Source: a virus
Direction: 5' to 3' (one strand)
DNA length: 64,000 nt
IMG/VR virus record: IMGVR_UViG_3300021964_000014
The notes under the pieces were generated by a model. The model was not told the DNA's origin, searched no databases, and saw nothing but the letters and a program-made list of their open reading frames with translations. Positions within the stretch are counted from its first letter, which is position 1, and every line of letters begins with the position of its first letter. Both the position numbers and the translations under genes were made by a program. Positions 17,471 through 59,218 of the stretch are shown here, in pieces.

Positions 17471-19225
17471 TTATCCTGCAAATGTTGCACCAGTAGGCTC
17501 AACTGTAAAGTCAAGTACTATGAATTCTGCCGTTTTAGCTGGCTGAATAAATATTTGACCTACTAATTGATTTCTATCTACAACGTCTGCTGTATTATTA
17601 GTGTCATCCATTACTACTCTAAAAGCATAAAGACCTTGTCTCTGTACTACTGATTCTAAGTAAGGATTTACCACTGATAAGAATCTGTTTCTAGTTGCTA
17701 CAGTATTTTGTTCGAATACTAAGTTTCTAGCTTGATCACCTAAGAATTTCTTAAGTTGGATTAATAATCTTCTTACGTTTACTCTGTCTAAAGCAGAAGC
17801 TTTAGTCTGTAGAGTCTTTTGACCAAATACTGCTATACCTTGTCCAGGGAAAGTAGCAATTGGGTTAATTTTTCCATCATACAATAAGTCTCTTTGACCT
17901 CTTGTTAATTTTTGCTCTGCTTGTATTACTCCTACGATGCCTCCTCTAACTAATCCAGCTGGTGCGAACCATGGTGCTGAACTATTATCAGTGAATGCAT
18001 ATATTCCTGGGATAACTACTGAAGCTGGTGCCCATACGTTTCTTCCTGTTGCGGATACGACTTGTACCCAAGGCCAGTAAGAAGCTGCATAAGAACTATT
18101 CAATGATGTAGCTGTTGAAGTAATATTACTAACTGTAGATGCGTAATTATCTAAATCTAGTACTGAAATACAATCTCCTCTAGATTCTGCTAAAGTAACA
18201 ACACTATTTAATACTCCTGCTTGATCTGCATTTTCGTAAATTAAACCTGGAGCAGACAACACGTTAAAGATATACTCATCTTTATTGTCTAAGATTGAAA
18301 TAGCATCTGTATAGTTACCAGAAGTTAATCCTTGTGCGTTAGTATTTGAAATACTGTTAAAATAGTTAGCACTTGCTACTGCATTTTCTCCTGTTGCATT
18401 ATAGAATGATCCAGATTCAACAATCGGTAAAGACGCTGAATAAGAATTTGTTCCGTCTGACCCAACTGTAGTACCGTCGTTTAGTAAGTAATCTACTGTA
18501 GGTGAATTAACTGTTGATACGTAAATATAATTTGATTTATTTACATAATCTCCAACAGTTTTAATATAAGTTTTAGTCCCATCAGTAGCTTTTGATTTAT
18601 ATTGAGTACCAATTACGTTTTCAATATAATTACCTGAGTTAGGATCTAGAGATACATTATTAAATGTCTCCAGTACTACTTTATTATTATGACTGTCATC
18701 TCCTCTTCTAACTAATAATGAGAATGTACCTTTAGCATTGTCTACATTTTGTACTTCCCATCTAATGTTATCTCTAGAACCTGAAGCTAATGCTCCACCG
18801 CCACCTGAAATATGTTCACCGGCATTGGTAAGAGATGTTGAGTTGTTAAAAATTGCTCCTTTGCCTAAAGTTTTAATTACAAAAGGTTGAATACTATCTT
18901 TAGCTGAAGATGAAACGTGAGTTGAAGTTGCTTGTGTAAATGATCCTGTTACTACTCTAGTTACTAATACTGAACCACCACCTTGTTGGAAGTAATTTTT
19001 TACAGCTATAGAAGTTAAAAATTCTTGCTTTGTAGATGCTGACACAAATGTTTCACCGAAATTACGTACATACTGGTTATAGGATGTGACGATAGTTGGT
19101 TCTTCTACTGGTCCTTTAACTGTAGGTCCGATAATTGCAGCACCTGCTTCAACTGGAGCGGGTTGGATAAAAGAAATATCGTTTTCTCTTGCAAATACAC
19201 CTGGGGAGATGATTGTTTCTGCCAT
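17471..19225 (-). CDS. Contractile tail sheath protein (gp18-like)
   Basis: SPGVFARE, PWFAPAG, GQKTLQ, DRVNVRRLL, FEQN, DDTNNT and PAKTAEFI motifs. Confidence 0.96.
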   Translation of the reverse strand: MAETIISPGVFARENDISFIQPAPVEAGAAIIGPTVKGPVEEPTIVTSYNQYVRNFGETFVSASTKQEFLTSIAVKNYFQQGGGSVLVTRVVTGSFTQATSTHVSSSAKDSIQPFVIKTLGKGAIFNNSTSLTNAGEHISGGGGALASGSRDNIRWEVQNVDNAKGTFSLLVRRGDDSHNNKVVLETFNNVSLDPNSGNYIENVIGTQYKSKATDGTKTYIKTVGDYVNKSNYIYVSTVNSPTVDYLLNDGTTVGSDGTNSYSASLPIVESGSFYNATGENAVASANYFNSISNTNAQGLTSGNYTDAISILDNKDEYIFNVLSAPGLIYENADQAGVLNSVVTLAESRGDCISVLDLDNYASTVSNITSTATSLNSSYAASYWPWVQVVSATGRNVWAPASVVIPGIYAFTDNSSAPWFAPAGLVRGGIVGVIQAEQKLTRGQRDLLYDGKINPIATFPGQGIAVFGQKTLQTKASALDRVNVRRLLIQLKKFLGDQARNLVFEQNTVATRNRFLSVVNPYLESVVQRQGLYAFRVVMDDTNNTADVVDRNQLVGQIFIQPAKTAEFIVLDFTVEPTGATFAG

Positions 19226-19316
19226 GTTTGGTCTATTTTATTTTAATTTATTATAAATATCATTCAGGAATGTAAAACAGAACTAATGTTTTTACAATAT
19301 CTGTCTATAATAAATA

Positions 19317-19344
19317 GGAAAGGAGGATGTAAAACCCTCCTTCC
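19317..19344 (-). terminator. Hairpin GGAAGGAGG-N9-CCTCCTTTCC
   Basis: Inverted repeat after the 19367 gene, abutting a TATTTAT element. Confidence 0.55.
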
Positions 19345-19366
19345 TTAAAAGTTTGTAAAAGATTAT

Positions 19367-19693
19367 TTATTTTTCTTCTACTACCTCTTCTGAAGTTGCT
19401 TCAGGAACTGAGCCTTCTACTGCTTCTTCTGACGCTGGAGCTTCAGGGTTTGGAATAAATTCCCCCTTTTGCAAGTCAATTGAACCAGCACCATAAGTCT
19501 CTTCTAGACTTTTAACTAATTCTTGTTCTGCATCTCTCAATTCATTTAAGAATGTATTAGCCGCTTCTTTTCTTTTGCCAAGGTTGATCTCGATTAATGA
19601 GATGTTACCAAGTTCATTGATCAAAGCGTTGTTCTTTTGAGAGAGTTCCGATAACTTGTCAAGCTCTTCTTGAGTTAACTTTTGATTTGCCAT
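19367..19693 (-). CDS. Acidic coiled-coil protein, possible fibre-assembly chaperone
   Basis: Heptad N-terminus, YGAGSIDLQKGEF motif, acidic tail; has its own promoter-like element. Confidence 0.6.
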   Translation of the reverse strand: MANQKLTQEELDKLSELSQKNNALINELGNISLIEINLGKRKEAANTFLNELRDAEQELVKSLEETYGAGSIDLQKGEFIPNPEAPASEEAVEGSVPEATSEEVVEEK

Positions 19694-19771: not shown

Positions 19772-20137
19772 TTATTCTGCAGCTACTTCAACTATGTACT
19801 TAGTAACAGAAGTAGGGTTTACCATTTCTGCTAGAGAAGATGAGACATTGTTTTTATGTGCTTGAACAGAACCTGTCGTTGCAGTTTCCATAGATGAAGT
19901 TACCCATCCTACTACAGTTGCTTTATCTAAAGAATCAAACGAAGTAAAAGAAGATAAATCGTCAATAGAAAGCGTTTGAGTCCCGATAGATGATACTGAG
20001 TGACTCCCAGTTGAAGCAGACAATGTCCAATGAGCATTGTAAATTACATCATTTTGAGTGTTTACTGGGTCTTGTGAATCTGATGCTGTTGGGTAAGTAT
20101 CTAATGCACCAACAGTCCATGTATACGTTATTGCCAT
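19772..20137 (-). CDS. Small fibre-associated virion protein
   Basis: YTWTV...VIYNAHW...FTSFDSL...VVGWV pattern resembles small tail-fibre accessory proteins; Ser/Thr-rich. Confidence 0.6.
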   Translation of the reverse strand: MAITYTWTVGALDTYPTASDSQDPVNTQNDVIYNAHWTLSASTGSHSVSSIGTQTLSIDDLSSFTSFDSLDKATVVGWVTSSMETATTGSVQAHKNNVSSSLAEMVNPTSVTKYIVEVAAE

Positions 20138-20182
20138 AATTTTTTATTTTGTTAGAATTAGTTATATAATATAAATAGGTAG

Positions 20183-20890
20183 TTATATTTGAATATTAAA
20201 GTTTATAACTGCTCTATGCTTTTTGCCGTAAAACGGCTCTACTGAATGTATAATATCGTAAGGCCATATTAATAACATTCCTTTTTTAGGTCTAATGTAG
20301 TATTTCATACCTCTAATATGAAAAGCAAAAACCCCACTGTAGGGATGATCCTTGATAGGTTCACCATCGGATAAGTAATAACCTCCTGAGAACATTGTAG
20401 GTTTAGCTTCACTATGATGCCATCTGCAATGATTATGAGCATTATGTCCTCTTCCGGAAGTTGGTTCGTAATACTGTAACCAGCTTTCTGTTATTTTACT
20501 ATTTTTTTCGTGTTTAATATCTAATGAATCTAATAAATGATAAAAACCTGCTTTTATTCTTCTTTCAATCACATTAACATATTCGTTATCTGTCTCTAAA
20601 AAATCGTTTGGTGGAGTAAAAAACCTACTCCCAATAGGAGGTAATTCGTGTTCCTCAACCCATTCATCTTGCCTGTTATAATTTACTTCATAATTTGATT
20701 GTCTTTCAATATCAAACTTACCTGGTAACTCTTGGCCCATTCTTTTTTGTTGAGGAGATAATAATTCTAAACCTAACTCGTAAACACTATCTGATACATT
20801 ATCGTTAAAGACTCTTTTATATAACGGTATAGGAGCTAAGTAAAAAATACTACTTTTAGTTGTTTCTATTAAAGGTTGATTAAATTTCAT
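20183..20890 (-). CDS. 2OG-Fe(II) oxygenase-like protein
   Basis: ESWLQYY, HNAHNH, SGGYYL, HSVEP and RAVINFN double-stranded beta-helix motifs. Confidence 0.85.
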   Translation of the reverse strand: MKFNQPLIETTKSSIFYLAPIPLYKRVFNDNVSDSVYELGLELLSPQQKRMGQELPGKFDIERQSNYEVNYNRQDEWVEEHELPPIGSRFFTPPNDFLETDNEYVNVIERRIKAGFYHLLDSLDIKHEKNSKITESWLQYYEPTSGRGHNAHNHCRWHHSEAKPTMFSGGYYLSDGEPIKDHPYSGVFAFHIRGMKYYIRPKKGMLLIWPYDIIHSVEPFYGKKHRAVINFNIQI

Positions 20891-20892
20891 AC

Positions 20893-21921
20893 TTACTCTT
20901 TTAAAAATCCATTATGAAAAGGAACATAGAAAACCACTTCATAATCGTTATCTTTAGCATACTGTTCAGCTTCTAATTGTGCTTCCCAAAATGTTTGCCA
21001 ATTGTCTTTATTACATAACATACTATCCTCAATTTTCAAATCAGCTTGGTATTTCATTGTTAAGGTAAACTGAGTGCTGTTAGAACCTACCTCAAGTCCT
21101 AAATCTATCATTTCTTTTAGCTCATGTACGTTATGTAGGTTAATATTGTTTGTCGTATAAGAAAAATCAGTTATATCTGGTCTTTCTTTAACTTTTTTAA
21201 AGTAAGAAGTTAAATTTTTCTTTATCTTATCAAAGTAATCTAATCTCCTAATAGTTCTATACGTCTCTGGTGTACCTGCATCGATTGAAAATCCTAAATT
21301 TACATTTCTTACTATATCTAAAAACCTATCTTGAGCTCTTTCTGTAAAAATAGTACCATTGCAAAAAGTCCAAAATAAAATATTATCTCGATATTTAATA
21401 AAATCTAGTTTTTCAAATACATCAAATATTCTATTCTTGTAAAAAGGTTCTGCTATACCTAAAATTGATAGAGTTTGTAAACTAGGTACTATTATTTTTA
21501 CTTCTTCTAATATATCATCTAATATATCAGGACCTACTCTACTCATATGTTGTTTACTACTTCTAGGACACATAATACAGGCAGTATCTGGTGTAGGGTT
21601 TAATCCTCCTATATTACAAAATGTAGAAGGCATATTTAACTCTAAATCTACTGGGTATTTAGTTAGTTGCACCTCATGTTTTGGTATTTTACTAAGATCG
21701 TAAAATCTAAAAGGGCAGCGATCATTATCACAGTATTTTTTATCTAATACTCCTTTAAGTGTAGAATTTTTAACTTCTCTTAGTTTAGGGTGTTTGAAAG
21801 CTTTTTCAATACCGTCTTCTAATATATTACCGTACACAGATGACTGGAAGCAGCACGAATGGTAGGTACCGTCTTCGTTTATTTTTAATCTAGAAAAAGG
21901 TAAGTTACAAAATGCTTTCAT
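20893..21921 (-). CDS. Radical SAM protein with N-terminal SPASM/twitch-like Cys domain
   Basis: FCNLPF...DGTYHSCC...GNI, C-X12-C-X2-C, GIAEP and FSIDAGTPETYRTIR. Confidence 0.8.
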   Translation of the reverse strand: MKAFCNLPFSRLKINEDGTYHSCCFQSSVYGNILEDGIEKAFKHPKLREVKNSTLKGVLDKKYCDNDRCPFRFYDLSKIPKHEVQLTKYPVDLELNMPSTFCNIGGLNPTPDTACIMCPRSSKQHMSRVGPDILDDILEEVKIIVPSLQTLSILGIAEPFYKNRIFDVFEKLDFIKYRDNILFWTFCNGTIFTERAQDRFLDIVRNVNLGFSIDAGTPETYRTIRRLDYFDKIKKNLTSYFKKVKERPDITDFSYTTNNINLHNVHELKEMIDLGLEVGSNSTQFTLTMKYQADLKIEDSMLCNKDNWQTFWEAQLEAEQYAKDNDYEVVFYVPFHNGFLKE

Positions 21922-22691
21922 TATATATGTTTAAAGTATAAGTCCATATCAATTTTTTTGTTGATAAATTTATTTAATTTTCTCTGTACTTTGCTTATTT
22001 TAAAATAATGATCAGTTCTATCATCACTTACTCCTTGTACATATGTTGGTTGAAACTTATTTATATATTCTTCTAAACTACAATTAGCATAAAGTAACAT
22101 AGCATGTTCTTCTATACATCCTTCGATTTTATTTTTAATTGTTATATCAATTAAATCTTTACCTAAATTTCTATTAGATGTATATAAACAGCTAAAATTA
22201 GGAGAAGCTAATCCTTCTTCAAAGTCCCAATTGTATTTCTTAAACTCTTTTTCTAAAACTTTAAAATACTCTAAGTTATAATCTAAAATTAATCTACCTT
22301 CAAATGTTTCTTTAAACGATTCAACTGTGTTTTTATGTTGTGCGTATAGAGGACATAGGGTTTCGTTCTTTTCTAATAACTTATAAAAGTTTGTATCTAA
22401 CGGTCTTAAAGCATAACAGTCCCAATCTAATAGGATAACTCTTTCAAATTTTTGAAGAGCTAAATCTAATGCGATTAATTTTTTACCGTATTGAGTATTA
22501 TACGAATCAAAGTAAGGTAGAGATTCTTTTACTAAAAAAGTTTTAAATCCTCTTTCTTTTAGGTACTGTTCGTTTTCTTCACCCCATACGTATACTAAAT
22601 GATTTTTCATCACCGGTAATCTAGGAATTTCAGCTTTAGTTTCATTCCTGTTCCCCCAATATGCTCTAATTATTGGTATCGTTGTATTCAT
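21921..22691 (-). CDS. Putative GT-A-fold nucleotide-sugar transferase
   Basis: KLIAL...VILLDWDC DxD motif; member of the enzyme cluster. Confidence 0.55.
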   Translation of the reverse strand: MNTTIPIIRAYWGNRNETKAEIPRLPVMKNHLVYVWGEENEQYLKERGFKTFLVKESLPYFDSYNTQYGKKLIALDLALQKFERVILLDWDCYALRPLDTNFYKLLEKNETLCPLYAQHKNTVESFKETFEGRLILDYNLEYFKVLEKEFKKYNWDFEEGLASPNFSCLYTSNRNLGKDLIDITIKNKIEGCIEEHAMLLYANCSLEEYINKFQPTYVQGVSDDRTDHYFKISKVQRKLNKFINKKIDMDLYFKHI

Positions 22692-23658
22692 CCCAATACG
22701 TTTTAAATCTTGAATGCTGTAGGTACTTACCTAATCCAAGTTCAATACATTCTCTAAAATATCTTCTTGTTTCTTGTTCTAAAAATTCAGGAAACATATT
22801 AAAATGTATCTTATTAAACCAGACATGTTCCCAAATTAGGTCTTCATCTTTCTTTTGGTCTGCACCTAAAGGTAAGTACCATTGTTCAGATTTTCCTTTA
22901 TACCTATACTCTTTACTTGAATAGTTACTATTGGCTAGGAACACTCTATCTGTTAGTGTGTTTGCCTTATAATCACCTTCTCTAATAACGTGTCCTAATA
23001 TACCTTGATCAGAAAGTAACCAAAACCATTCCGGCACGTGTTCACCGTTTGTTTCAACTAATTTCTTATGCCATTTAGTATATTTCTGATTTAGCTCTAA
23101 ATTATTAACAGCTAAAAAAGAAGTATTAGGACAAAGATCATTACAGTTGTAACTTTTTGGAAATGCAATATGATCTACTTCATTTTCCCAATCATGTTGC
23201 TCAAAATAATAGTATCCTCTGGGTATTTCCCAATGTGTTACTGTTATATCTCCTTCTAGAATATAATCAGGTATAGGTTGTCTAATAATCATATCCTGAT
23301 CCATAAAGATAAAAGGTTCTTTTTGATTTGCTAGTACTTTTATTTTACCACTAGTCCAAAAATAAGCAGGATCTATTTTAGATTTTGAATAACCGTCCAA
23401 AAAACTAATATTTACTTCATCATAAAGATCATTTATTCCAAATTGCTGGTAAAAATTAAATCCTACTGAATCTGTATATAGTTTTATAGGTCCATTATGG
23501 TATTTCCACATACCTGCGGATAGAATAGTATAAAGTATTTGATAATTGGGTTGATCATAGCACTTACCTGGTAGCTCTCTTGTTGATCTAAAACCATGTC
23601 CTCTTAAACGCTCTCTATGAAAAAAAGGTTTAGTCCAATTTACGTGTATACCGTTCAT
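22666..23658 (-). CDS. Putative GT-A-fold nucleotide-sugar transferase
   Basis: KLYTD, FWTSGKIKV and PFIFMDQD (DxD) motifs. Confidence 0.6.
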   Translation of the reverse strand: MNGIHVNWTKPFFHRERLRGHGFRSTRELPGKCYDQPNYQILYTILSAGMWKYHNGPIKLYTDSVGFNFYQQFGINDLYDEVNISFLDGYSKSKIDPAYFWTSGKIKVLANQKEPFIFMDQDMIIRQPIPDYILEGDITVTHWEIPRGYYYFEQHDWENEVDHIAFPKSYNCNDLCPNTSFLAVNNLELNQKYTKWHKKLVETNGEHVPEWFWLLSDQGILGHVIREGDYKANTLTDRVFLANSNYSSKEYRYKGKSEQWYLPLGADQKKDEDLIWEHVWFNKIHFNMFPEFLEQETRRYFRECIELGLGKYLQHSRFKTYWDEYNDTNN

Positions 23659-23659
23659 A

Positions 23660-24532
23660 TTAAGACTTTAAATATATATGTGCCCACTTTTGTGGTTTTT
23701 TACTAAGATACGATTTAAATTGCTTAAAAACAACTTTATCTACATCAAAAGATGGAGCAATATTACAGTTCTGTACCATATAAGGTTCATCATCTGTTTT
23801 TCTTACTTCTACTGCTGTTGCACCTTGCCATTGTTGAGGAGCATTAGCTTGCCAAATAGCTAAATGAAGTCTTTCCATTTTTTGTTCATCGATATAACCT
23901 CTTTTCTGTATAAATAAAGTATGTTTAGGGCAGTATACTTTAAAATCTAAAGTTTCTAAAAATACATCTGCTGCATATCTTATAGGTAGAACTTTATTTA
24001 GTAATTTTTGAGCTGAATTACGATTTAATTGGTAAGCATGAGCTGAGTATTTATCAGATAGCAAGTCTGGTTTGTATATTTCACTTAGGTTTGTTTTTTC
24101 CTTACCTATGATAGGATCGTACATTCTACCCCAAATAAATAAATCGTAGTCTATTTCTTTTATTTGTTTTTTTAGAACTTCAAATTTACCAGAGCCTATA
24201 TAACTGTGCAGCTCTTTACTAAAGCATGCGTCATCTTCAAGAATTAAACAAGTTTCGTGTTTACTATCAATAAAAGCTTGATAGGCTAATCTATGGGATA
24301 AAGCACAAGCTATAATATTTTTAGTTAAAAGACCGTTAGAATCTATAAAAATAGTATTTAAAGTACCGCTGTTTATTAATTCATTCTGATCTGGTAAATC
24401 CTCTCCTGCTATAGCTTCTATAATTTCAAAGTTTGTAATATTGAAATCGTTAAAAAGCTTAAGAATAGTTTCTTTCCTTTCAGGATAAGTAGGTAGGTTA
24501 ATAACATAGATAATATCTACACCTAAATCCAT
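23660..24532 (-). CDS. Glycosyltransferase family 25
   Basis: YVINL...ER, CALSHR, LILEDD and AHAY...AQKLL...AAD motifs characteristic of GT25. Confidence 0.9.
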   Translation of the reverse strand: MDLGVDIIYVINLPTYPERKETILKLFNDFNITNFEIIEAIAGEDLPDQNELINSGTLNTIFIDSNGLLTKNIIACALSHRLAYQAFIDSKHETCLILEDDACFSKELHSYIGSGKFEVLKKQIKEIDYDLFIWGRMYDPIIGKEKTNLSEIYKPDLLSDKYSAHAYQLNRNSAQKLLNKVLPIRYAADVFLETLDFKVYCPKHTLFIQKRGYIDEQKMERLHLAIWQANAPQQWQGATAVEVRKTDDEPYMVQNCNIAPSFDVDKVVFKQFKSYLSKKPQKWAHIYLKS

Positions 24533-24548
24533 AACTTTTATTTAAAAT

Positions 24549-25097
24549 TTATACGTCTAAAATACTTGAACTAGGAATATTTTCAGCTACTACTGTTTTT
24601 AAGTGGGTATAACATTGACTGTATATATCTGTTAATTGATCTAAATCTATACGGTTATAGTCTTGTAATGATTCACTAACTTTAGTCCACTGTGAGCTTG
24701 ATACCCATCCTGTTACTTCTACTTCGTCTCCATTTTCATCAAAATCAATATAAACTTGACTTGAAGATGTCCACACTTCTTCCCAATGTTCTTGATTTAC
24801 TCTTTCAGTTGAAGCTGTTACTGGAAATGAAATAAGTTCAGGTAGAGTAAAAGAACCGGTAATAGAACCAGATTCATACTCCATATCTCTTAAAGGTACA
24901 GATGCTATTCCTCTTGGTAAAGGATCTTGATACCAGTATTTTCTACCTTTTACAGCATCACTAGAAGTAAGGAATAACATAGGATTATATTCTACTTCTC
25001 CCATCCATGGTTTAACTTTATAGAATTCTATTCTAATATAAGCTGAATTAGTATCCCCCCATTCTGTTTTTAGTGTTCCGTTTAATTGTATAGCCAT
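24549..25097 (-). CDS. Hypothetical fibre-associated protein
   Basis: 182-aa ORF after a TATTTATA element; rich in the [ST][GAS]S motif. Confidence 0.6.
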   Translation of the reverse strand: MAIQLNGTLKTEWGDTNSAYIRIEFYKVKPWMGEVEYNPMLFLTSSDAVKGRKYWYQDPLPRGIASVPLRDMEYESGSITGSFTLPELISFPVTASTERVNQEHWEEVWTSSSQVYIDFDENGDEVEVTGWVSSSQWTKVSESLQDYNRIDLDQLTDIYSQCYTHLKTVVAENIPSSSILDV

Positions 25098-25127
25098 TTT
25101 AGTATTTTATTATAAATAGTTAATGTT

Positions 25128-26702
25128 TTACAGACTAAATCTTTCTTTATATGCTTTGTAATTAGTAGCTATTTCAATAGGACTCAACACTCTATTGTAC
25201 TCTCTATAAACATGTACATCATTTGTTCCGTATCTACTCAAATCTCCTACTCCTATAAAATTAGAATCTAAACTATGACTAAAAGTAAATGTCCAGTTAA
25301 AAGAGTCTGTTTTTTCTCCTCCGTTATAATACAAATTAAAAGTACCTGCAGTAGAACTTGTAGACGTATAAGTAATGACTAAATGATGATATTGATCTTG
25401 CACAAATGTATTAGCTTTAGTCCAGCTCCTATAGGTTATTTTAGAACTGCCAGAGTAGCCTTCGTAATAAGTTAAATTACCACTTGAGTGAAACATCCAA
25501 TAACCTCCTCCTCCTAAATATCCTCCGAATAGTCCATTCCAAGAAGTATCATTATCATCAGTTGGTTTAAATACTAATTCTACTGACCAATCTTCAGTAA
25601 TAGCGTACTGTTTACGGTCTTTATTTATATAATCATCAGTACCATCAAAAGTAGGTTGAGCATTAGAATCAAAACTTACGTTTGCAACATTTAAAGTCCC
25701 GTAATCGTTACCGGCTAAATTTAATAAGCTTTCTGTTGATGAACGAGTACCTGCTACAAAGGGTGTTGAATGTCCTCTGTTTACTTCTACTTGCAGATCG
25801 GCGATATCCATATCGTACTTGTCAGTAGACCCTTGTGGGAACCAGTATTGATAAAAGTTATAAGTAACTGAAGCTGTCCATTGATGCACTACGTGTTTCC
25901 ATTCTAAATACTCACCACAGCTAAACCCTTGACTAAATGCTGAATTACCTGAGCCGAAATATGTAGTGTATGTTCCTGTTTTATTAGCTGCACTTGGAGT
26001 AGCTGCTCTAAGCCAATATGAAACGGTAATGGTATCACCTTGAGTTACTGGTGTATATACTCCATATGCCATTCCATCTGCTACTCCATCGCCTCTGTAC
26101 ACATGCCATCTCATACAGTTAGTTCCAGGTCTTCTTCCTCCTCCTTCAACTATTTCTTTTATTAAACCAGAATTAGGTAAATGAGGTCCTCCCCACCACA
26201 TAGTAGGGAAACTAGTAGCATTGATGGAAATTCTAGTGTCATTTGCATAATCATCGTGTACTTTATAGAATCCAGTAGAAGGATTAATATACCCTTGAGA
26301 GCCGTTCTGTGAGCTATTATACGCATGTAAAGAAAATGTAGTAGAACTTAATTTTTTAATAACATAATTAGTTCCTGCTGTTACTCCTCCTCCGGTGGTT
26401 TGAGGTTTTAGTACATCAAAACTTCTTATGTTACGGCCTGTACTACTCAAAGTTACTATGTTGTTAGAAACAGAGCCTACAGTCCCTATAGAAAAATAAG
26501 TATTACTATTGTATTGATTTGTATTATATGTACCCCATCCGTTAGATGTAGTAAAGCTAGCATTTGCTGTTGGGGTTGGTACTAAGTTACTAGTAGGCTC
26601 CCCAGCATAAAAACGAGTAGCTATACCATTAGTATCTAATCCGTATGAACTGTCATACCCATAAACTAATCCTTGCTTTGCTATGTGAGGTCCTGAATAC
26701 AT
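25128..26702 (-). CDS. Virion protein with carbohydrate-binding-like and C-terminal LamG/ConA domain
   Basis: TFDGTDDYI...YHHLVITY...YNRVLSPIEIATNY. Confidence 0.8.
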   Translation of the reverse strand: MYSGPHIAKQGLVYGYDSSYGLDTNGIATRFYAGEPTSNLVPTPTANASFTTSNGWGTYNTNQYNSNTYFSIGTVGSVSNNIVTLSSTGRNIRSFDVLKPQTTGGGVTAGTNYVIKKLSSTTFSLHAYNSSQNGSQGYINPSTGFYKVHDDYANDTRISINATSFPTMWWGGPHLPNSGLIKEIVEGGGRRPGTNCMRWHVYRGDGVADGMAYGVYTPVTQGDTITVSYWLRAATPSAANKTGTYTTYFGSGNSAFSQGFSCGEYLEWKHVVHQWTASVTYNFYQYWFPQGSTDKYDMDIADLQVEVNRGHSTPFVAGTRSSTESLLNLAGNDYGTLNVANVSFDSNAQPTFDGTDDYINKDRKQYAITEDWSVELVFKPTDDNDTSWNGLFGGYLGGGGYWMFHSSGNLTYYEGYSGSSKITYRSWTKANTFVQDQYHHLVITYTSTSSTAGTFNLYYNGGEKTDSFNWTFTFSHSLDSNFIGVGDLSRYGTNDVHVYREYNRVLSPIEIATNYKAYKERFSL

Positions 26703-27865: not shown

Positions 27866-27866
27866 A

Positions 27867-47400: not shown

Positions 47401-50400
47401 GTAATTTGGTTTTGAGTTGTTGTTATTTGCCCTGCAAAAGTTGATGCACCTGCTGTTGTAATTCTTAATAACTCTGTACCACTTGCACCTGTAGAAACTG
47501 TAAAATTACCTCCGCCGCCATCATTTAGATTTGTTGCTAACGCAATACCAGAAACAGAACCTAAAGTTGTAACATTACCATCAGGGTTGTGGGTTGTAGA
47601 ATCATCATCGAAATCTAAAAAGTTAGATGCTGGATTATTAGATGATTTTAATAATTTAGCTACATTTAATGTTATATCTTCACTAAATGTTATTGCACCG
47701 GCTGCTGTATCTGCTGTATCACTTCTTAAGAATTGAGAAGAATCTAAACTATCTAATGTACCTGCATTGTCAGCATATTCTGAATGAGAGGCCGAAGTGG
47801 CTGTTGCTGCATTTCCTGTTATATCACTATCGGTATATGCTAATTGTTTAGCTGTACCCCAATTAGTAGCTGCTTGATCTGCTTGATAATGATATATTTT
47901 CTTCTCACTCTTATCAAAAGCAAGTATGTTTGCATCACCACCAGTGCTATCATTGTAAGAGTTTAAATACAGAACATCTTGATAGTTAGTACCAGTGCCG
48001 CTACCAGCTTCTAATCCTTCTTTTGATGAAAAGAATATTCTTAAATCATTAGTATACCCATAATCCTCAGGAGCCATGTCTCTATCATCGGTAGCATTTA
48101 AATTATTTGCTTGAGCTGCAGTTCCTGTTGTATTTTGATTCCAAGTAGGAACTGTACCTGTTAGTCCTGAATAAGGAACAGATGAAGCTGATGTAGCTGA
48201 ACCTGCACTAGTTGCTGATGTAGCAGAGGTTGCATTATCAGCATATTCTGCATGAGAAGCAGATGTTGCTGACCCAATTGTACCTGTTAAGTTACTACCG
48301 TCCCCGTAGTATGCTGAACCAGAAACTGTACCTACTACGTGTAGAGGGTGTAAAGGAGAGGTTGTTCCAATTCCAACCCTGCCTGCGTTAATGGTTAAAG
48401 TAGTGCCGTTTTCGTCCCCTAATTGTAGGTCTGAATCGGTTGATGCTCCCCCTCTTTGAGATGCTCTGATAAATGGTCCGGCGTCTCTATTTGAGTTAGC
48501 TTTAAATTGAATACGTGCTGCTCCGGTTGAAGTACCGTTTTCTATTAGTAATTGATCTGAGTCTCCTCCTAATACATGTAATTTTTTCGAAGGACTAGTT
48601 GTTCCAATACCTACGTTACCGTCTTTGATACGCATACTTTCACCGCCAGATTCTTCAAATACTATATCCCCACCGGATGGACCTACGTTTAGTTTTAGAT
48701 GTTTAGCATCTGTTTGTCCTACGAAAGCATAATCTGAACCTGCAAGATCTCCATTTGATGCATCCATATAAATCCCTGCATCTCCAGATCCTGTGTTTGC
48801 TATTGAGATAGCTGTATAGCTTGAATTACCGTTAATAAGTTTAAGAGGGATTGCAGAAGTATTGGACATTGTAAGTACCCCAGTTGTTGTATCCGCTGCA
48901 TCGCTTCTTATGAAAGAACCTGGGTTTATACCTCCTAATGTACCTGCATTATCAGCATATTCTGCATGAGAAGCAGAAGTTGCTAATCCTATTCTTCCTG
49001 TTAAGTTACTTGCATCTCCGTAGTAAGTTGAACCTGATACTTGCCCAGTAACAGCAATACCTGTACTTGTTGTTTCAAACTTTTTAGAGTTATCGTAGTA
49101 TAGTTTTACTGCACCATTTTCAATAAAATTAGCTAATGTTTCATTTCCAGCACCATTAAGAAAATCATACTGGGTTGAGGACATAAATCTCAATCGACCA
49201 GTTGTGTTTTTAATAATACTGTTAGTACCGTCGTGATATAATTGTAAATCAAATGAATTACCTAATGATATATTTGTGCTATCTGGTATTAATATATTTT
49301 TTGTGAATCTATTTAATTGTTCAGAACCATCTATGTAATAGTAAGTATCTAAGCCACCGCTTCCATTATCTGATCTAAATATAATATCTTGATCATCAGC
49401 ATTATTATCAATATATAAATGACCCTCATAAGTAGCTATGTGAGAATAGGTTGCTTTATGTCCAATCTGGAACATATCACCGTTGCCCATCAATAATAGC
49501 TTATTATCTACAAGTCTTAAATGATCTCTAAATAAACCTGTACCGTTAACATCTAATGTATAAGATGGTGTGATCGTGTTAATACCTACTTCACCGGAAG
49601 CAGAAATAAACATTCTTGAACTAGTTAAAGTCTTAAATGTTATACCTCCTACTCCTGTATTTTGAATAGTCTGTGATGCTCCGGTTGAAGCTAACCAGTG
49701 GTTATAAAGTAAATAATTACTACTATTATCTTTCCAAAGGTAAATTTTACCGCTATTCTTTAATCTTACATCTCCATCAATTCCAACACTACCGGTAAAG
49801 TCGTGATTATCATCTGAGGTATCGCCAAACTTAGTTGAACCGCTATCGAATAGTATAGAAGCAGATACATATTCAGTATTAAACTGCTGTGCAGTTAACG
49901 TACCTGTCACTGTCAAGTTACCGGTTAATGTATCTGTTGTATTAAGTAAATACGACGAGGTAGCCGCATTAAGAGACGTTATATTACTAGCATTTGTACT
50001 AATATTACCTGCGTTAGTTTTAGAGGTACTTGCTAATGAAGCTGATGTTGACGTAAAGGAACCGGATATCTTTGCCGCTGTTAATCCTTTTATTAAAGAT
50101 AAACTAGTTACTTCAGAATCCATTAATGCTCCAAACGAAGTGATTTGATCTGATCCTGATACTATATTAGCAGGTATATTATCTAATTCGTTATAATTTG
50201 TGGTTAAACCTTCAAATCTTGTTGCAACCGAAGCTGAGTATGATGTGATAGAGCCTGATATGTCTGATGCTATTTGAGCTGATTGAGATATTAAAGTTTT
50301 ACCTTCTAATGTATCTAATCTACCATCATTAGTTTTTATATCAGCCGCAAGTGAACTACTTAATGTTGTATCGGCACTTGTTGCGAAAGTTTTAACAGAA

Positions 50401-51182: not shown

Positions 51183-51183
51183 T

Positions 51184-51951
51184 TTATAGTGCTCTTACTA
51201 ATGTTTTAATAGACCAATCATCACTTGTAACTGTTGCTCGTAACCTCATATCTGCTCCAGATGTATCAACGCTAAAAGTAACTCCACTTGTGTCTCCAAT
51301 ATCACTTGTTGAATTGTCTGTAAACTTTACAGACCCTCCATTATAAATAGCTATTACTGTACCTGCTCTAGCATTAGATCCACTTATGCAAGTGTAGTCG
51401 AAAAATGCTCCTGAGTATGATCCTGTATTTACTGTTGCTACTGTTTCTATAGCAGCAGAATCAACATCTATATTTTCTTGATAATCAAGTAAAGCGCTTT
51501 CTATTTTAAATTCTTCTGCATAAGAAGCTGTAAAAGCAATACCACCAACATTAACTGCTGCTGTACCTGCTGTGGCTGTATCAAAGTAGATTTTAATGTT
51601 ATTGTCATCAACCATTTCAACCCTTCCGGGTATGATCTGATTATCGTTAGTATCAAATACTTGAACTACGGGAAATTGATCTCCAATATTATGAGCTAAA
51701 GACCAAGTTGTAGCTGCTACTGTTTGAGAAAGTTTAATGGAACTACCATAACCACCTGGTGAAATACCTGTTAGATTAGAACCGTCTCCGTAATAAGTAG
51801 ACGCTGAAACTGGGCCTTCTACTGATAGTAGATGCGAAGGAGAAGATGTACCTATACCTACAGTCCCCCCAAAGGAGCCTGTGCCTTGTACAGTAAGCGA
51901 ATTTAAGTTAGCATCAGATCCGCTAACTATTAGTTTTTTCCAGTTCGGCAT
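51184..51951 (-). CDS. Virion structural/fibre-associated protein
   Basis: MPNWKKLIVSGS N-terminus, WSLAHNIG...PVVQVFD domain, beta-rich C-terminal domain. Confidence 0.7.
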   Translation of the reverse strand: MPNWKKLIVSGSDANLNSLTVQGTGSFGGTVGIGTSSPSHLLSVEGPVSASTYYGDGSNLTGISPGGYGSSIKLSQTVAATTWSLAHNIGDQFPVVQVFDTNDNQIIPGRVEMVDDNNIKIYFDTATAGTAAVNVGGIAFTASYAEEFKIESALLDYQENIDVDSAAIETVATVNTGSYSGAFFDYTCISGSNARAGTVIAIYNGGSVKFTDNSTSDIGDTSGVTFSVDTSGADMRLRATVTSDDWSIKTLVRAL

Positions 51952-52247: not shown

Positions 52248-53246
52248 TTAAGCGTAAATCCAAATCTCTCCTGAGGTATCTACTTTTATATTACCGTTTT
52301 TCTGGTATTTTGCTTTATCTGTAGATTCAACGATGTTCTCGTCAACTACTACCGGTACGAAAGCGTCAGGAGCAAAAGATGTTGCATTAGATGCTAAAGA
52401 ACCTGTAGTGGCAAATCTACTAGTTGCTGTATCCCATGCAAATACCTCTCCTGCTTTACCGCCTTGGTCTATAATAATACCACCTTCGGCTGCTCCAGCT
52501 GAACCAGATGCTAATAAGATAAATGCATCTTCTACGTTCAGGTTAGTAACTTGTTGCTCAATTGTATCCCCGGTTACTGTTAAGTTTCCTTGGATAGTAA
52601 TGTTATTGGCAAACGTTCTATCACCAGTAATTGTATCAGCAAGTCCGTAAGTTACAGTACCTCCAGTACCTAACGTAATAGATGAACCAGCATCGACTGT
52701 TAATTCACCTGAAGTTGCTGTGTATGTAATTGAAGTGTCACCTTCTACTGCTGTACCTGCTGTTGAACCGTAATCTACTGATAGAGCTGTACCGGCACCG
52801 CCTGATAAACCTGTACCTGCAACAGAAGTATTTAATTGAGTTTCTGTAATTCCTCCATCAGTAACTGCAACTGTAATAGTTTGTGCTGTTGCGGCTGTAC
52901 TAATTGAATTACCGGATAGTATACTAAAGTCTTGAGTTAATAGATCTACAGTTGTTGTTGATCCTCCCGATCCTGTAATATCTAAACTTGTTACTAACCC
53001 TGTTAATTGTGAACCATCGCCTTGGAAAGAACCGCTAAATGAACCGGAAAGAATTGAAGTAGCTCCGGTTGATGTAATTACTGATGATCCAAGTCCGAGA
53101 GTAGAGCCGTTAAATGTAATACCACTACTTTCGATGGCGCCTCCAACTCCGGCTACAAGTATGTTGTCATTAGTTAGTATTGAGGAGGTAATCGATGCTA
53201 AATGCGCATCAGATCCACTAACTATTATCTTTTTCCAGTTTGCCAT
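52248..53246 (-). CDS. Virion fibre/whisker-like structural protein
   Basis: MANWKKIIVSGS N-terminus; ITIQGNLTVTG...NLNVEDAFILL; Gly/Ser/Thr-rich. Confidence 0.7.
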   Translation of the reverse strand: MANWKKIIVSGSDAHLASITSSILTNDNILVAGVGGAIESSGITFNGSTLGLGSSVITSTGATSILSGSFSGSFQGDGSQLTGLVTSLDITGSGGSTTTVDLLTQDFSILSGNSISTAATAQTITVAVTDGGITETQLNTSVAGTGLSGGAGTALSVDYGSTAGTAVEGDTSITYTATSGELTVDAGSSITLGTGGTVTYGLADTITGDRTFANNITIQGNLTVTGDTIEQQVTNLNVEDAFILLASGSAGAAEGGIIIDQGGKAGEVFAWDTATSRFATTGSLASNATSFAPDAFVPVVVDENIVESTDKAKYQKNGNIKVDTSGEIWIYA

Positions 53247-53280: not shown

Positions 53281-53658
53281 TTAATTATTAAATCCAAGAA
53301 AGAATTCATCTGAGCCGCTATAAAACATTCCACCACTTACAGCTGTAGGTGCAGTATTTTGAGCAGACATTTGTAAAGTACCTTCTTCGTTTACTTTTAT
53401 TTTCTCTTCTCCGTTAACAGAAATACCGAAATAGTCTTCTACTCCGTCTAATTCTAATTGAAAAGAACCTGTTATTTTTAAATCATTTGTTGTAGAATAA
53501 TAAGAACCGGTTTGTTTAAAGATACCATTAGTAAACAACTCTCCGTTTACCGTCAAAGGTCCATCTATATTGAGAGAACCAGATAAATCTAAACTTCCGG
53601 TCAGTGATTTCGAACCGGAAATGTCAGGATCAATTTGTTTCCATTGAATTAATGCCAT
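53281..53658 (-). CDS. Small virion structural protein
   Basis: 125 aa, repeated [ST]GS motif, follows tail-completion gene. Confidence 0.65.
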   Translation of the reverse strand: MALIQWKQIDPDISGSKSLTGSLDLSGSLNIDGPLTVNGELFTNGIFKQTGSYYSTTNDLKITGSFQLELDGVEDYFGISVNGEEKIKVNEEGTLQMSAQNTAPTAVSGGMFYSGSDEFFLGFNN

Positions 53659-55364: not shown

Positions 55365-55663
55365 TACTTCTTTTCTATTGTTTCTTCTGCTATCTCAATC
55401 TTAATTATATTAGGATATTTTGATGTAGCATTGTTTTTAAACGAATTAAACGCCTCTGAGGCTTCTTTCTGACTTATTAGTTTCACTTTAAACGTCATTG
55501 CACCCATTTCTGCTGATGAACCAGCATTAGTTACTGTGGTAACTCCGGGTAAAGCACGTAAAAGTTCAGCTAAATTTTCACTTTCACCTTCTTTGAACAT
55601 AACACGTACCATACCTTCATAGGTATTAAATAATATCTGTTCTATTATGGTGATTAATTTCAT
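55364..55663 (-). CDS. Hypothetical protein
   Basis: 99-aa ORF with MKLITIIE N-terminus and LRALPGVTTV. Confidence 0.65.
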   Translation of the reverse strand: MKLITIIEQILFNTYEGMVRVMFKEGESENLAELLRALPGVTTVTNAGSSAEMGAMTFKVKLISQKEASEAFNSFKNNATSKYPNIIKIEIAEETIEKK

Positions 55664-56805
55664 TATCCTACATGTATAGTCAGTGGAACATTCGATAAGG
55701 TAGTTTTAAGGAATTCAGCCTCTTGAGACTGTGCTTCCATCTGAGATCCTCTCGATGTTTCGTTTAACATTTCTCTTAAGTTAGTCAATAAAGCATCTTT
55801 TTCTGTTCTAGCATCAGCTAACAAGTCAGATTGATTTAATGTTGCTTCTGAGCCTGGTACTGGTACTGTTTGATACTTTCCTCTTATGTACCCTAGTAGT
55901 TCTTTAGCTAATGCTAAAGTATATTTAAAGATCCACTGTCTTCCTACACTATTAATATGTTCATATGTTGGGTTATTATAAGGAACTTCTGCTACATTAG
56001 TAATTAGCCCTGGGGAATTATTAAAGTTGATAGCAGATTTATCATCTGACTTATAGTATTCAAACATTAAACGACCACTATTAGTAGGTACTGGGAATAC
56101 TTTTAATTGGTTATTTACTAATTCAAAAGTAAATGTTGATTTTCTTATTTGATCATTAAATTCTATTGCTTGAGTCTTTAATATATCGTAAGAAGCTGGC
56201 ATTAATAAGAAATTAACACCGGGACTATAAGCTCCAAATTCAAAAGCGTCCATTAATGACTGTATACCTGTACCTGTACCAGCATATGGGTCAAAGTACC
56301 TCTGTATTGCTGGTGGTGCTTCATAAAATACCTTTCTTATCTCTATTCCACCTACTATTCCTTGGTCAGATGCCCAAGCATCTAAATCATAGTTTTGAAG
56401 TGAAGCAGTGATATCTAAAGAGCCTGAGTATTTAGTTACGTTACCGCCTACTCCTGCTTCAGTCCCGTAGTTTTTAGCAATCTGTACAAATCTATTTATA
56501 TTTGATTCTACTAATTGATTATTTACAGAACTACCGGTAGAAGCTCCTTCTAAATTTAGATAATTTTCTCTAATTTTATATTGAAATACTTCGTTACCGT
56601 AAGTAGTAATAGCTTCTTCAAAGCAAGCATAAAAAGAACCAGACTGGAGTTCTACGTCCATTAACGGATATCCTAGTCTAGTAGCACAGAATGTAGCAAC
56701 TTTATCTGCATCCGATTGAAAGGATGTATCGTTGTCATAAAATCCGAAAGGAGTAGATCCTGTAGTGAAATTTGAAGATCCGTTCCATATACTAATATTG
56801 GCCAT
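55663..56805 (-). CDS. Neck / head-tail adaptor protein (gp13-like)
   Basis: RLGYPLMDVEL; WIFKYTLALAKELLGYIRGKY...TLN. Confidence 0.8.
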   Translation of the reverse strand: MANISIWNGSSNFTTGSTPFGFYDNDTSFQSDADKVATFCATRLGYPLMDVELQSGSFYACFEEAITTYGNEVFQYKIRENYLNLEGASTGSSVNNQLVESNINRFVQIAKNYGTEAGVGGNVTKYSGSLDITASLQNYDLDAWASDQGIVGGIEIRKVFYEAPPAIQRYFDPYAGTGTGIQSLMDAFEFGAYSPGVNFLLMPASYDILKTQAIEFNDQIRKSTFTFELVNNQLKVFPVPTNSGRLMFEYYKSDDKSAINFNNSPGLITNVAEVPYNNPTYEHINSVGRQWIFKYTLALAKELLGYIRGKYQTVPVPGSEATLNQSDLLADARTEKDALLTNLREMLNETSRGSQMEAQSQEAEFLKTTLSNVPLTIHVG

Positions 56806-57543: not shown

Positions 57544-57587
57544 AAAACGTTTATTGTATAATAATAAATAGTTGATCGCTAGTAAAT

Positions 57588-57620
57588 AAAAAAAAGAAAG
57601 GGGCCAAAAAGGCCCCTCTC
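57588..57620 (-). terminator. Intrinsic terminator after major capsid gene
   Basis: GAGAGGGGCC-TTTTT-GGCCCCTTTC followed by T8. Confidence 0.88.
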
Positions 57621-57646
57621 AAATATATCCAATATCTAGATTAGAA

Positions 57647-59218
57647 TTACACTGCTAACATGTCAGAGATGTAAATCTTACCGTAGAATTCTGGTCTAAT
57701 CATCTTCTTCGCATAACGAGTCATGATACCTTTTCTTGGAGTGAAGGTATTAGGATCGTATACTAAAGGAGTCATGATTAATGGTACATATGGAGCATAT
57801 ACAGCACCACTTTCTAGGAACTGACCACCTCTAAATCCTAATAGGATAGTGTTTTCAGTCATATAAGGGTTTTTGTATACTTTATATCTACCGTTAAGTT
57901 GTCCAACTTTTTGAACACCCATTGCAAACTCAGCTTGGTCACCGTCAGTTTGTGCAGCATATCCTGGAATAGATTCTAAGATAGTTGCAACTGCTGGAGA
58001 ACATACTAGGAAGTTAGCACCTCCTCTAAGAGTTTTTTGGTGAATTTTGTTAGATACTTTTTGGATTTTAGTTCCTAAAGTTTGGAACCATTGTCCTTGA
58101 GTATTGTAGAATCCACTTGAAGCAGTAGCCCAAGCAGAACCATTCCATACTCTATTGTTTTCAGCAGACCACTTTTCAGTTGTTCTTGCACCGCCGATCA
58201 ACATATCTAAGATCTCAAGATCAATCTCCATAGAGATATACTCACTCAATAAAGATGTTAACTCAGCCTCAGCATCAATACTGTGGTAAGCGTTAAGATC
58301 TTGAGCGAATTCTGGAGTCCATTGTGCTTTCAACTTTCTAGTTTTAGCAACAACTGCCTCAGATTTTAACTCTACATTGATTTCTGGGATGTTGATAGAT
58401 CCAGCAGGAGCGTCTTCAAAGTCTCCTCTTGAATTGTCAGCTGGTACAGCATGCCATTTGATAGCACCTGTAATTGCACCTGCAGCAGTTGCTGTTTTAG
58501 CGATTACAAATACTAAATTACCACTACCGTCAACATAAGTCAATTCAGGGTTAGAAGTAATGTCAGTTGACCCAGATAAGATTCTGAAAGCTCTTACACC
58601 GTCAACATCATATCCAGCAGGAGCTGCAGCAGATACTGTAAAGTAATCAGCAGGATCCTTGTCGTCGTCAAAGTTTACTGATGCAGATGCAGCAGATCCA
58701 GTAGCGACAGCAGATAGAGCAACGTCAGATCCAGTAGCGACAGTATATCCGAATGCACCAGCACCGTATAGACCACCAGAAGGATCAACATCTACTCCCA
58801 TTTTATTCACAACTGATACGTTTCCGTATAAGCTTGAATCGTTAGTTTTTCCGTGTCCAGCAGTACCGTATTTAAAGTCTAAATAAAATACTAGTCCAGA
58901 AGGAAGGTTCATTGGTTGTACAGAGACGAAATCTTTAGATGAGATTTGTGCGAATACCTTTCTTACTAAAGGTAGAGCAACACCAGCCCATTGTTCAGAT
59001 CCACCACCTGCAGCGCCGATTGCAGAAGTACCAGTAGATGATTGCTCAGCTACGATTTGTTTTGCTTGGTTCTCTAACATGATAGACATGTTAGCTGTGT
59101 CTTTTTCGTTTAGACCTTCAAGCAATCCAGAAGCACCCCACTTATCAGCTAACCTTTTTGCGTCTTCTTGAAGGGCTTTGTAGCCGTTCGCGCTTTCTAA
59201 TAGGTTGTTAATTTCCAT
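57647..59218 (-). CDS. Major capsid protein (T4 gp23-like)
   Basis: VQPMNLPSGLVF, TRKLKAQWTPEFAQDL, EIDLEI, YAPYVPL and GIMTRYA. Confidence 0.96.
   Translation of the reverse strand: MEINNLLESANGYKALQEDAKRLADKWGASGLLEGLNEKDTANMSIMLENQAKQIVAEQSSTGTSAIGAAGGGSEQWAGVALPLVRKVFAQISSKDFVSVQPMNLPSGLVFYLDFKYGTAGHGKTNDSSLYGNVSVVNKMGVDVDPSGGLYGAGAFGYTVATGSDVALSAVATGSAASASVNFDDDKDPADYFTVSAAAPAGYDVDGVRAFRILSGSTDITSNPELTYVDGSGNLVFVIAKTATAAGAITGAIKWHAVPADNSRGDFEDAPAGSINIPEINVELKSEAVVAKTRKLKAQWTPEFAQDLNAYHSIDAEAELTSLLSEYISMEIDLEILDMLIGGARTTEKWSAENNRVWNGSAWATASSGFYNTQGQWFQTLGTKIQKVSNKIHQKTLRGGANFLVCSPAVATILESIPGYAAQTDGDQAEFAMGVQKVGQLNGRYKVYKNPYMTENTILLGFRGGQFLESGAVYAPYVPLIMTPLVYDPNTFTPRKGIMTRYAKKMIRPEFYGKIYISDMLAV

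Follow-up and report, generated by a model that had tools for sequence, protein, structure and literature searches.

Introduction

The fibres and spikes of phages contain trimeric beta-helical or beta-spiral shafts, for example in T4 gp5C and gp12, in which short repeats with a glycine at the corner build up intertwined trimers. In two-residue Gly-Ser or Gly-Asn beta-hairpin turns of the type II'-like kind, glycine comes first, a small polar residue second, and beta-forming residues flank the pair. Here, we analyzed a 64,000-nucleotide (nt) stretch of viral DNA (IMG/VR record IMGVR_UViG_3300021964_000014, in the following "the window"), in which many virion proteins encoded between positions 17471 and 59218 are rich in the tripeptides SGS and TGS (together [ST]GS). 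A preliminary description had proposed [ST][GAS]S, and especially SGS and TGS, as the acceptor motif of a candidate phage-encoded virion glycosylation system. The actual unit of enrichment is the five-residue motif Phi-[ST]-G-S-Phi (Phi, hydrophobic residue), which on balance is probably a structural turn peculiar to this phage lineage.

With shafts of the gp5C/gp12 type the motif shares the periodic glycine corner and the alternating hydrophobic residues, and the trimer model of a 125-amino-acid (aa) protein encoded at 53281 (proteins are named after the lower coordinate of their genes) exhibits inter-chain offsets of six residues. On the other hand, no sequence relation to solved chains was detected, and [ST]GS is specific for one clade, shows no enrichment in T4 and extends to virion proteins other than fibres. 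The residue pattern, with TGN as the next commonest triplet in the same frame, is that of Gly-Ser and Gly-Asn hairpin turns, and the likeness goes as far as this pattern; what separates the motif from Gly-Ser turns in general is the strength of its serine preference and its restriction to one phage clade.

Other described systems concern the glycosylation of virions. In mycobacteriophages, glycans are reportedly present on capsid and tail-tube subunits. Phage-encoded glycosyltransferases (GTs), for which virion proteins are the proposed substrates, are attributed to these phages in the account given by PMC10877033 (citing Freeman et al. 2023). Like them, the window phage has GT genes near its structural module, namely a cassette with a GT25 enzyme between sheath and fibre genes and, outside the window, an operon encoding GT-B enzymes behind a late-type sequence box. 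Unlike the situation there, the tail tube of the window phage lacks [ST]GS and its capsid has three internal sites, of which one is conserved. Moreover, the hosts are of the Gram-negative type, the GT families are different and glycans on the virion are hypothetical. Chloroviruses and Mimivirus glycosylate their capsids or fibrils with self-encoded enzymes at atypical sequons, the glycans of chloroviruses being N-linked (PMC9614988). Among solved structures, the phage GTs are closest to proteins of these viruses (a pair of GT-B enzymes to B736L, GT25 to R655). However, the matches are weak, B736L has no known acceptor, and N-linkage differs from what would be expected here.

The general O-glycosylation system of Bacteroidota acts on exported proteins, while virions assemble in the cytoplasm. 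Bacteroidota are the likely host phylum of the window phage and Ser/Thr would be the acceptor in both cases, but the motif is another one. As already noted in the preliminary description, it does not match D-(S/T)-(A/I/L/V/M/T). Position -1 is occupied by V, I, F, L or A and glycine follows the first hydroxyl residue; furthermore, an unrelated phage of Flavobacteriia revealed no enrichment. In autotransporter heptosylation of the Aah/TibC type, a cytoplasmic O-glycosyltransferase reads a strand-loop-strand motif within a beta-helix. This is the kind of site that [ST]GS would be if it were a sequon, an analogy only; no homologous enzyme came to light here, and none was sought. A literature search on glycosylated tail fibres in such phages yielded nothing relevant, and no family model or paper describing a Phi-[ST]-G-S-Phi signature was found.

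[ST]GS is enriched in virion proteins

The window comprises bases 67346-131345 of a 176.6-kilobase (kb) phage genome (G000). Within it, the virion proteins contain 66 [ST]GS sites. Shuffling that preserves composition gave 29.9±5.5, the highest of 500 shuffles reaching 47, while the non-virion proteins are at chance (4 observed, 4.6 expected). The same clear difference was obtained for the whole genome, where 127 sites in virion proteins stand against 47.2 expected (observed/expected ratio, O/E, 2.7) and 18 sites in non-virion proteins against 18.3 (O/E 1.0). The density in virion proteins of the phage is 6.4 sites per 1000 aa. Shuffling within blocks of 10-50 aa gave about 50±7 sites for the genome virion set, ruling out local S/G/T-rich segments as the cause of the 127 observed. 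The same three residues in other orders reached counts of 48-69, and of the 66 sites in the window, duplicated sequence contexts account for just 8. By these whole-protein, local-block, order and context-clustering controls, neither composition nor low complexity nor the duplication of modules explains the enrichment.

The enrichment is not confined to fibres. Non-fibre virion proteins, with the 53281 protein left out, harbor 17 [ST]GS versus 5.3±2.2 expected, a number reached by none of 2000 shuffles. In an unbiased tripeptide scan of the 24 non-fibre virion proteins of the genome, TGS ranked first and SGS second of 3066 tripeptides; in the related phage immuto, SGS ranked first in the same scan. 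Codons at the sites are heterogeneous, which excludes a DNA-level motif and shows that [ST]GS is a peptide-level feature. As a side observation, threonine at the first position is encoded by ACA in 36 cases and by ACT in seven, even though both codons are used equally in these proteins (840 versus 818); the excess of ACA may be a codon-pair effect before GGT or GGA.

All figures that had been counted manually for [ST][GAS]S were reproduced. The looser class as such did not hold together, however, since apart from SAS (2.6-fold enriched) its additional members TAS (1.3-fold), SSS (1.0-fold) and TSS (0.8-fold) are near or below expectation. It was also confirmed that [ST]GS is absent from NrdB, the helicase, the exonuclease, UvsX, SSB, PolA, PhoH, five enzymes of the cassette mentioned above, the tube and the tape measure, and from one large fibre. 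The virion proteins concerned, all encoded on the minus strand like every gene of the window, are the following:

17471-19225, minus strand: tail sheath; three [ST]GS, all in the variable N-terminal half ([ST][GAS]S: six, all before residue 292)
29153-34291, minus strand: 1712-aa fibre with S74 chaperone domain; seven [ST]GS
34297-39999, minus strand: 1900-aa fibre with S74 chaperone domain; 13 [ST]GS, ten of them at residues 289-499
40237-44406, minus strand: 1389-aa fibre with S74 chaperone domain; no [ST]GS, 3.1 expected
44409-51182, minus strand: 2257-aa fibre; 13 [ST]GS, mostly in the N-terminal 1000 residues; two copies of a module SGST.FG...H.FTGS
51184-51951, minus strand: 255-aa fibre protein; four [ST]GS, 0.78 expected
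52248-53246, minus strand: 332-aa fibre protein; six [ST]GS, 1.46 expected
53281-53658, minus strand: 125-aa fibre-like protein; six [ST]GS; N-terminal hexad repeat [STDN]-G-x-Phi-x-Phi
55663-56805, minus strand: neck/head-tail adaptor; four [ST]GS, 0.37 expected ([ST][GAS]S: five)
57647-59218, minus strand: gp23-type major capsid protein; three [ST]GS at residues 162, 173 and 215 ([ST][GAS]S: five, four of them at residues 162-215)

Two small proteins of the cassette, encoded at 19772 and 24549, contain six and eight [ST][GAS]S, respectively, including two [ST]GS each. Thus far, the idea of a motif spread over unrelated outer virion folds was borne out, as the enrichment lies far above chance and extends to fibres, baseplate, the outer half of the sheath, the neck and the insertion region of the capsid; the enzymes proposed as its cause did not prove to be so (see below).

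The enriched unit is Phi-[ST]-G-S-Phi

Inspection of the flanking residues revealed that the enrichment resides in a longer unit. Phi-[ST]-G-S-Phi occurs 23 times in the window (2.4±1.7 expected) and 40 times in the genome (about 4 expected). Of the 127 sites, 40 have hydrophobic residues on both flanks, compared to 11 expected. Position -1 is taken by V or I at three times the expectation, and the residue following the motif is F, I or L. The hydrophobic fraction is 0.58 at -1 and 0.50, 0.27, 0.44 and 0.22 at +1 to +4 against a background of 0.30, so hydrophobicity alternates downstream of the motif as in beta-strand-type repeats around a glycine corner. Within the general frame Phi-x-G-x-Phi, SGS and TGS together make up 40 of 227 triplets in the window phage and 40 of 142 in immuto, with TGN, AGN and DGS far behind. 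The next [STDN]G follows [ST]GS at a spacing of 6, 12, 18 and 24 residues with 2.8-, 2.1-, 2.0- and 1.8-fold enrichment, respectively. The sites behave like turn positions of beta structure, and much of the pattern is explained without any modification.

The 53281 protein illustrates the periodicity. Its N-terminus comprises seven consecutive hexads, and D-G-P, N-G-E and N-G-I fall in register with the [ST]GS among them. Three sites (G21 S22, T50 G51 S52 and T63 G64 S65) do not vary among the 38 aligned family members, whose mean identity is 53%, and two drift. The predicted homotrimer scored 0.86 and the best control 0.00; the mark for this score was reached by 20 of 30 proteins solved as pairs of one chain and by one of 23 with a single-chain structure. 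Between runs, 81% or more of the contacts were the same, and the predicted local distance difference test (pLDDT) value of the partner chains was at least 79. The best-defined inter-chain contacts connect residues that are six positions apart (37:31, 36:30, 35:29, 31:25, 60:54 and 62:56), and the interface (residues 11-33 and 52-72) includes five of the six sites. This model supports a putative intertwined trimer. In the confident parts of AlphaFold2 (AF2) monomer models, sites coincide with hairpin turns or with strand and helix ends; in a 349-aa protein of the baseplate region, sites 26, 42 and 256 are predicted at the ends of secondary-structure elements. When PDB sequences were searched with a fibre N-terminus or with the profile of the 53281 family, no usable match was obtained.

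The 349-aa protein is encoded outside the window and contains nine [ST]GS sites. Three of them are kept in 32-35 of 40 family sequences and others in about half, the number per sequence ranging from two to nine. Semi-conserved sites are replaced by the generic turn triplets DGQ, SGQ, TGE, DGE and NAI.

The enrichment is specific for one phage lineage

Among relatives of the window phage, immuto, Mel-JY01 and two complete IMG/VR genomes (G001 and G002) share the enrichment. The ratios determined for these and for unrelated phages were as follows:

Immuto: virion O/E 3.5, non-virion O/E 1.0
G001: virion O/E 4.4, non-virion O/E 0.73
G002: virion O/E 3.5, non-virion O/E 0.73
T4: virion O/E 0.59, no Phi-flanked site
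Elizabethkingia phage TCUEAP1: 1.2 sites per 1000 aa in virion proteins, one Phi-flanked site

Together with the window phage, the first three give O/E values of 2.7-4.4 for virion and 0.7-1.0 for non-virion proteins. In Mel-JY01, the pattern was seen in fibre-like, sheath and neck proteins, and RM378 revealed a weak enrichment (14 versus 6.7 expected over 50 kb). TCUEAP1 infects the same host class (Flavobacteriia) but stands outside the clade. The enrichment is lineage-specific, and by the values for T4 and TCUEAP1 a generic trait of myovirus virions or of Flavobacteriia phages is rejected. The lineage is large, one of its marker proteins being encoded on at least 595 viral contigs.

Between orthologs of the window phage and immuto, only 17 of 53 [ST]GS sites are kept. 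The capsid sites align to residues about 160-202 of T4 gp23, and of the three only the one at residue 215 is retained in immuto; the immuto ortholog of the neck protein has none of the four. The immuto sheath possesses an insertion of about 125 aa (residues about 100-230) that is absent from the window phage and holds five of its seven [ST]GS. Outer domains newly added to virion proteins come motif-rich already.

The only large fibre lacking the motif, the 1389-aa protein, consists of domains common to tail fibres of many unrelated phages, which fits a motif tied to the clade's own building blocks. A search with a fibre C-terminus detected a C-terminal domain common to fibres of Vibrio and Alteromonas phages and was uninformative on the motif. 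The otherwise different 53281, 52248 and 51184 proteins begin with a common tag, in which M-A-(L-I-Q/N)-W-K-(Q/K)-I leads to S-G-S. It reads NWKK[IL]IVSGSDA in the 52248 and 51184 proteins, and MALIQWKQ is invariant across the 53281 family. Judging from its sequence, the tag is possibly a docking peptide for attachment to the particle.

The enzyme cassette in the tail module is a sporadic island

The window phage is a Flavobacterium-type myophage with a capsid of the T4 gp23 type. In the region analyzed, the sheath gene (17471) is followed by the enzyme cassette, genes for baseplate-proximal proteins, six fibres and the 53281 protein, neck genes and the capsid gene (57647). The cassette is thus situated inside the tail module, between sheath and fibre genes, and forms a fixed unit of seven genes:

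24549-25097, minus strand: 182-aa S-rich protein, first gene of the operon, always accompanies the cassette
23660-24532, minus strand: GT25 glycosyltransferase (Pfam PF01755, 82.1 bits, cut-off 24, residues 8-191)
22666-23658, minus strand: DUF6734 protein
21921-22691, minus strand: 256-aa protein with GT-A-type leads only (GT8, GT6 and Nucleotid_trans clusters)
20893-21921, minus strand: radical SAM protein with an N-terminal twitch/SPASM-like domain (NF033640 below its cut-off)
20183-20890, minus strand: 2-oxoglutarate (2OG)-Fe(II) oxygenase (matches just under the Pfam cut-offs)
19772-20137, minus strand: 121-aa DUF7936 protein (S 16.5%, T 14.9%), last gene of the unit

The best solved relatives of the GT25 enzyme are Mimivirus R655 (2e-8) and the procollagen galactosyltransferase COLGALT1. 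Taken together, the layout resembles a module of substrates and tailoring enzymes (radical SAM, 2OG oxygenase and two or three transferases), and to judge by their composition and position, the two small S/T-rich proteins may be dedicated substrates of the cassette.

The preliminary description had proposed a modification of the motif by the enzymes encoded at 20183-24532 or by others outside the window, and the first of these proposals had to be given up. The cassette was found in only three very close viral contigs and, by this distribution, appears as a sporadic island. Immuto has no homolog of GT25 or of the other cassette genes, five long relatives (two of them complete) lack the GT25 cassette, and in the complete genome G002 no homolog of any cassette gene was detected. 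As cassette-free immuto, G001 and G002 are nevertheless fully enriched (virion O/E 3.5-4.4), with a motif density equal to or above that of the window phage, the cassette cannot be what the motif serves. By the preliminary description's own standard, such relatives refute the proposal for these enzymes.

Two further observations concern neighboring genes and the wider genome. The 243-aa protein encoded at 28417-29148 beside the fibres matches the fibrinogen C-terminal globular domain (Pfam PF00147, 25.6 bits, cut-off 22); with this lectin-type fold it is a possible receptor-binding tip. Both the window phage (genome positions 49727-51659) and immuto (locus L002, 40295-42237) encode their own GroES and GroEL, which are 67% identical.

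A conserved GT-B operon is headed by a late-type box

A second GT cluster is located outside the window at genome positions 26144-34509 (locus L007). It encodes two nucleotide-sugar epimerases/dehydratases, a GT32-like and a GT2 enzyme, and two large GT-B proteins. The GT-B protein of 482 aa was found in exactly those phages that have the closest capsids, although their hosts belong to three phyla. It is present in all five long relatives with 59-68% identity, compared to 33-53% for the virion protein by which the relatives were found. Since every long relative carries this GT-B, its co-occurrence with the motif is uninformative. Sequence comparison places the two GT-B proteins, which exceed baseplate proteins in conservation, among the core features of the clade of T4-like phages comprising immuto, Mel-JY01 and RM378. 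Matches of the GT-B pair to the PDB were weak (E 7e-3 and 2e-4), with chlorovirus B736L, a GT-B enzyme without known acceptor, as the best and glycogen phosphorylases as others; a GtfA/GtfB-like identity was not supported by this search.

The octamer TATTTATA (gene orientation) is located 13-40 nt upstream of the start codons of tape measure, tube, sheath, portal, fibre and baseplate genes. Its extended form is [CA]TATTTATA[AT], and 35 of the 52 copies in the genome lie within 80 nt of a start codon. In the window it occurs, among other positions, at 19252, 17449, 15841, 34312, 52017 and 53270 and before the first and the last gene of the cassette:

25111-25118, minus strand: TATTTATA box, 14 nt upstream of the start codon of 24549, the first gene of the cassette
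20170-20177, minus strand: TATTTATA box, 33 nt upstream of the start codon of 19772

A copy also precedes the small gene heading the GT-B operon, a position that is kept in immuto, G001 and G002, i.e. in four genomes in total. G001, G002 and immuto agree with the window phage in the strand bias of the box. Because it accompanies virion genes, the box looks like the late promoter of the clade; compared to the T4 box TATAAATA, the orientation of the core differs. Because the GT-B operon is headed by the same box as the virion genes, it appears to be expressed late.

DNA is an unlikely substrate of these GTs. For immuto, liquid chromatography-mass spectrometry (LC-MS) detected deoxyadenosine, deoxycytidine, thymidine and fdPreQ1 replacing deoxyguanosine, but no sugar-bearing nucleoside (bioRxiv 10.1101/2023.04.13.536721). 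A conserved, apparently late operon that does not act on DNA and is kept across very different host envelopes is, on genomic grounds, a fair candidate for a virion modifier.

Discussion

It is somewhat more probable than not that Phi-[ST]-G-S-Phi is a structural turn or corner motif of this lineage. One strand would end with V/I/F-[S/T], Gly-Ser would form the corner, and the next strand would begin with F, I, L or Y. In fibre-type proteins the turn would recur every six residues or multiples thereof, as [STDN]-G-x-Phi-x-Phi, at the corners of an intertwined trimeric beta structure, while in non-fibre virion proteins the clade would favour the same turn at loops and turns of those outer portions of baseplate, sheath, neck and capsid proteins that are rich in beta structure. 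The motif would then mark virion proteins and not enzymes because it is used in these beta-rich parts. Both the turn geometry and the trimeric beta-helix are predictions drawn from residue pattern and models. Such a turn explains the flanks, the periodicity, the equivalence of D-G and N-G corners, the invariant sites of fibre-type proteins and the trimer model, and it also accounts for a foreign fibre devoid of the motif and for capsid and neck sites that come and go freely. RM378, which keeps the GT-B enzyme though its motif density is low, also speaks for this explanation.

Several points weigh against a purely structural role. That TGS and SGS are top-ranked in non-fibre virion proteins of unrelated folds is poorly explained by structure alone, and T4 virion proteins, which are depleted of the tripeptide, contain no Phi-flanked site. 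At the third position of Phi-x-G-x-Phi, serine is favoured 2.1-3.4-fold, whereas Asn, Thr and Asp are near 1-1.5-fold; this strong preference, even in non-fibre folds, is not well accounted for. Sites turn over between orthologs while the density is kept in five genomes, the pattern expected from selection by a trans-acting reader. Finally, the trimer is a prediction whose calibration refers to two copies and not three, and the AF2 monomer models are only moderate (pLDDT 66 for the 53281 and 61 for the 349-aa protein), too weak for mapping solvent exposure.

A reader of this kind could be a glycosyltransferase. The hairpin would then be O-glycosylated in the cytoplasm, late in infection, by the clade-core GT operon (26.1-34.5 kb), resulting in a sugar-coated virion; the GT25 cassette would contribute at most a decoration peculiar to the strain, possibly of the two small S/T-rich proteins that it encodes. 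We regard this as rather unlikely, even though it would explain the triplet preference of the clade, the serine at the third position and the constant density, and has a candidate enzyme set. In its favour, enrichment is seen only in virion proteins, across unrelated folds and with [ST]GS as the top tripeptide, hydroxyl residues are preferred at positions 1 and 3 of the frame, and sites turn over at maintained density. The 482-aa GT-B enzyme tracks the phages with the closest capsids over hosts of three phyla and occurs in 5/5 long relatives, the TATTTATA box stands at the head of its operon in four genomes, and the sugar-free DNA of immuto makes an action of the GTs on DNA improbable. There is also a precedent, as GTs of mycobacteriophages modify capsids and tail tubes according to the summary in PMC10877033 (citing Freeman et al. 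2023).

On the other side, the glycan is hypothetical, and all co-occurrence lies within one clade and is not independent. RM378 is a partial counter-example, since it possesses the GT-B enzyme but is weakly enriched. The 53281 trimer model places the motif residues in the region of the inter-chain interface and not in free loops, and at two sites of this family the invariant Thr is never replaced by Ser, which looks like a constraint of packing and not of an acceptor. Furthermore, the GT-B matches to the PDB are weak, with the best one lacking a known acceptor, and a large outer fibre (40237) has no site at all. The two explanations are compatible in so far as a transferase could read a hairpin. 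It is conceivable, albeit doubtful, that the sequon is embedded in the fold and read by the conserved, late-expressed GT-B pair, with sites being gained and lost like those of the glycan shields of animal viruses.

Less probable still is another trans-acting reader, such as a chaperone for the assembly of fibres or virions, or a Ser/Thr modification other than glycosylation. The arguments for a lineage-wide reader apply here as well, and the clade encodes its own GroEL and GroES. However, no candidate linked to the motif was found, no kinase-like gene was noticed, and the argument is one by elimination.

A modification of the motif by the five enzymes encoded at 20183-24532 is very improbable. 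Their cassette lies in the tail module behind a late-type box and includes a clear GT25 and probably one or two further transferases, but it is limited to three very close contigs, and immuto (virion O/E 3.5) has no cassette homologs; among the five long relatives, all without GT25, G001 reaches an O/E of 4.4 and the cassette-free G002 one of 3.5. An artefact of composition, low complexity or duplicated fibre modules can be dismissed with similar confidence: virion proteins do contain more S, G and T than others, and some fibres share a few duplicated modules, but whole-protein and local-block shuffles gave 30-50 sites against the 66 and 127 observed, reordered residues gave 48-69, contexts that are duplicated hold only 8/66 sites, one fibre lacks the motif despite a similar composition, and the virion O/E of T4 is 0.59.

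A five-residue motif in about tenfold excess in the virion proteins of a whole clade, and only in these, makes a reproducible sequence signature. Since immuto and its host are in culture, the question of its function is directly testable. If Phi-[ST]-G-S-Phi is structural, it provides an easy means of recognizing fibre-type and outer virion proteins in a large group of marine and freshwater phages, most of them uncultured, and would define a new type of repeat for trimeric fibres. If it should turn out to be a glycan acceptor, this would be, to our knowledge, the first case of virion glycosylation directed by a sequon in phages that infect Bacteroidota and cyanobacteria. Phages of Gram-negative-type hosts could then coat their particles with self-made sugars, with consequences for adsorption, for the stability of the particles, and for grazing or recognition by immune systems.

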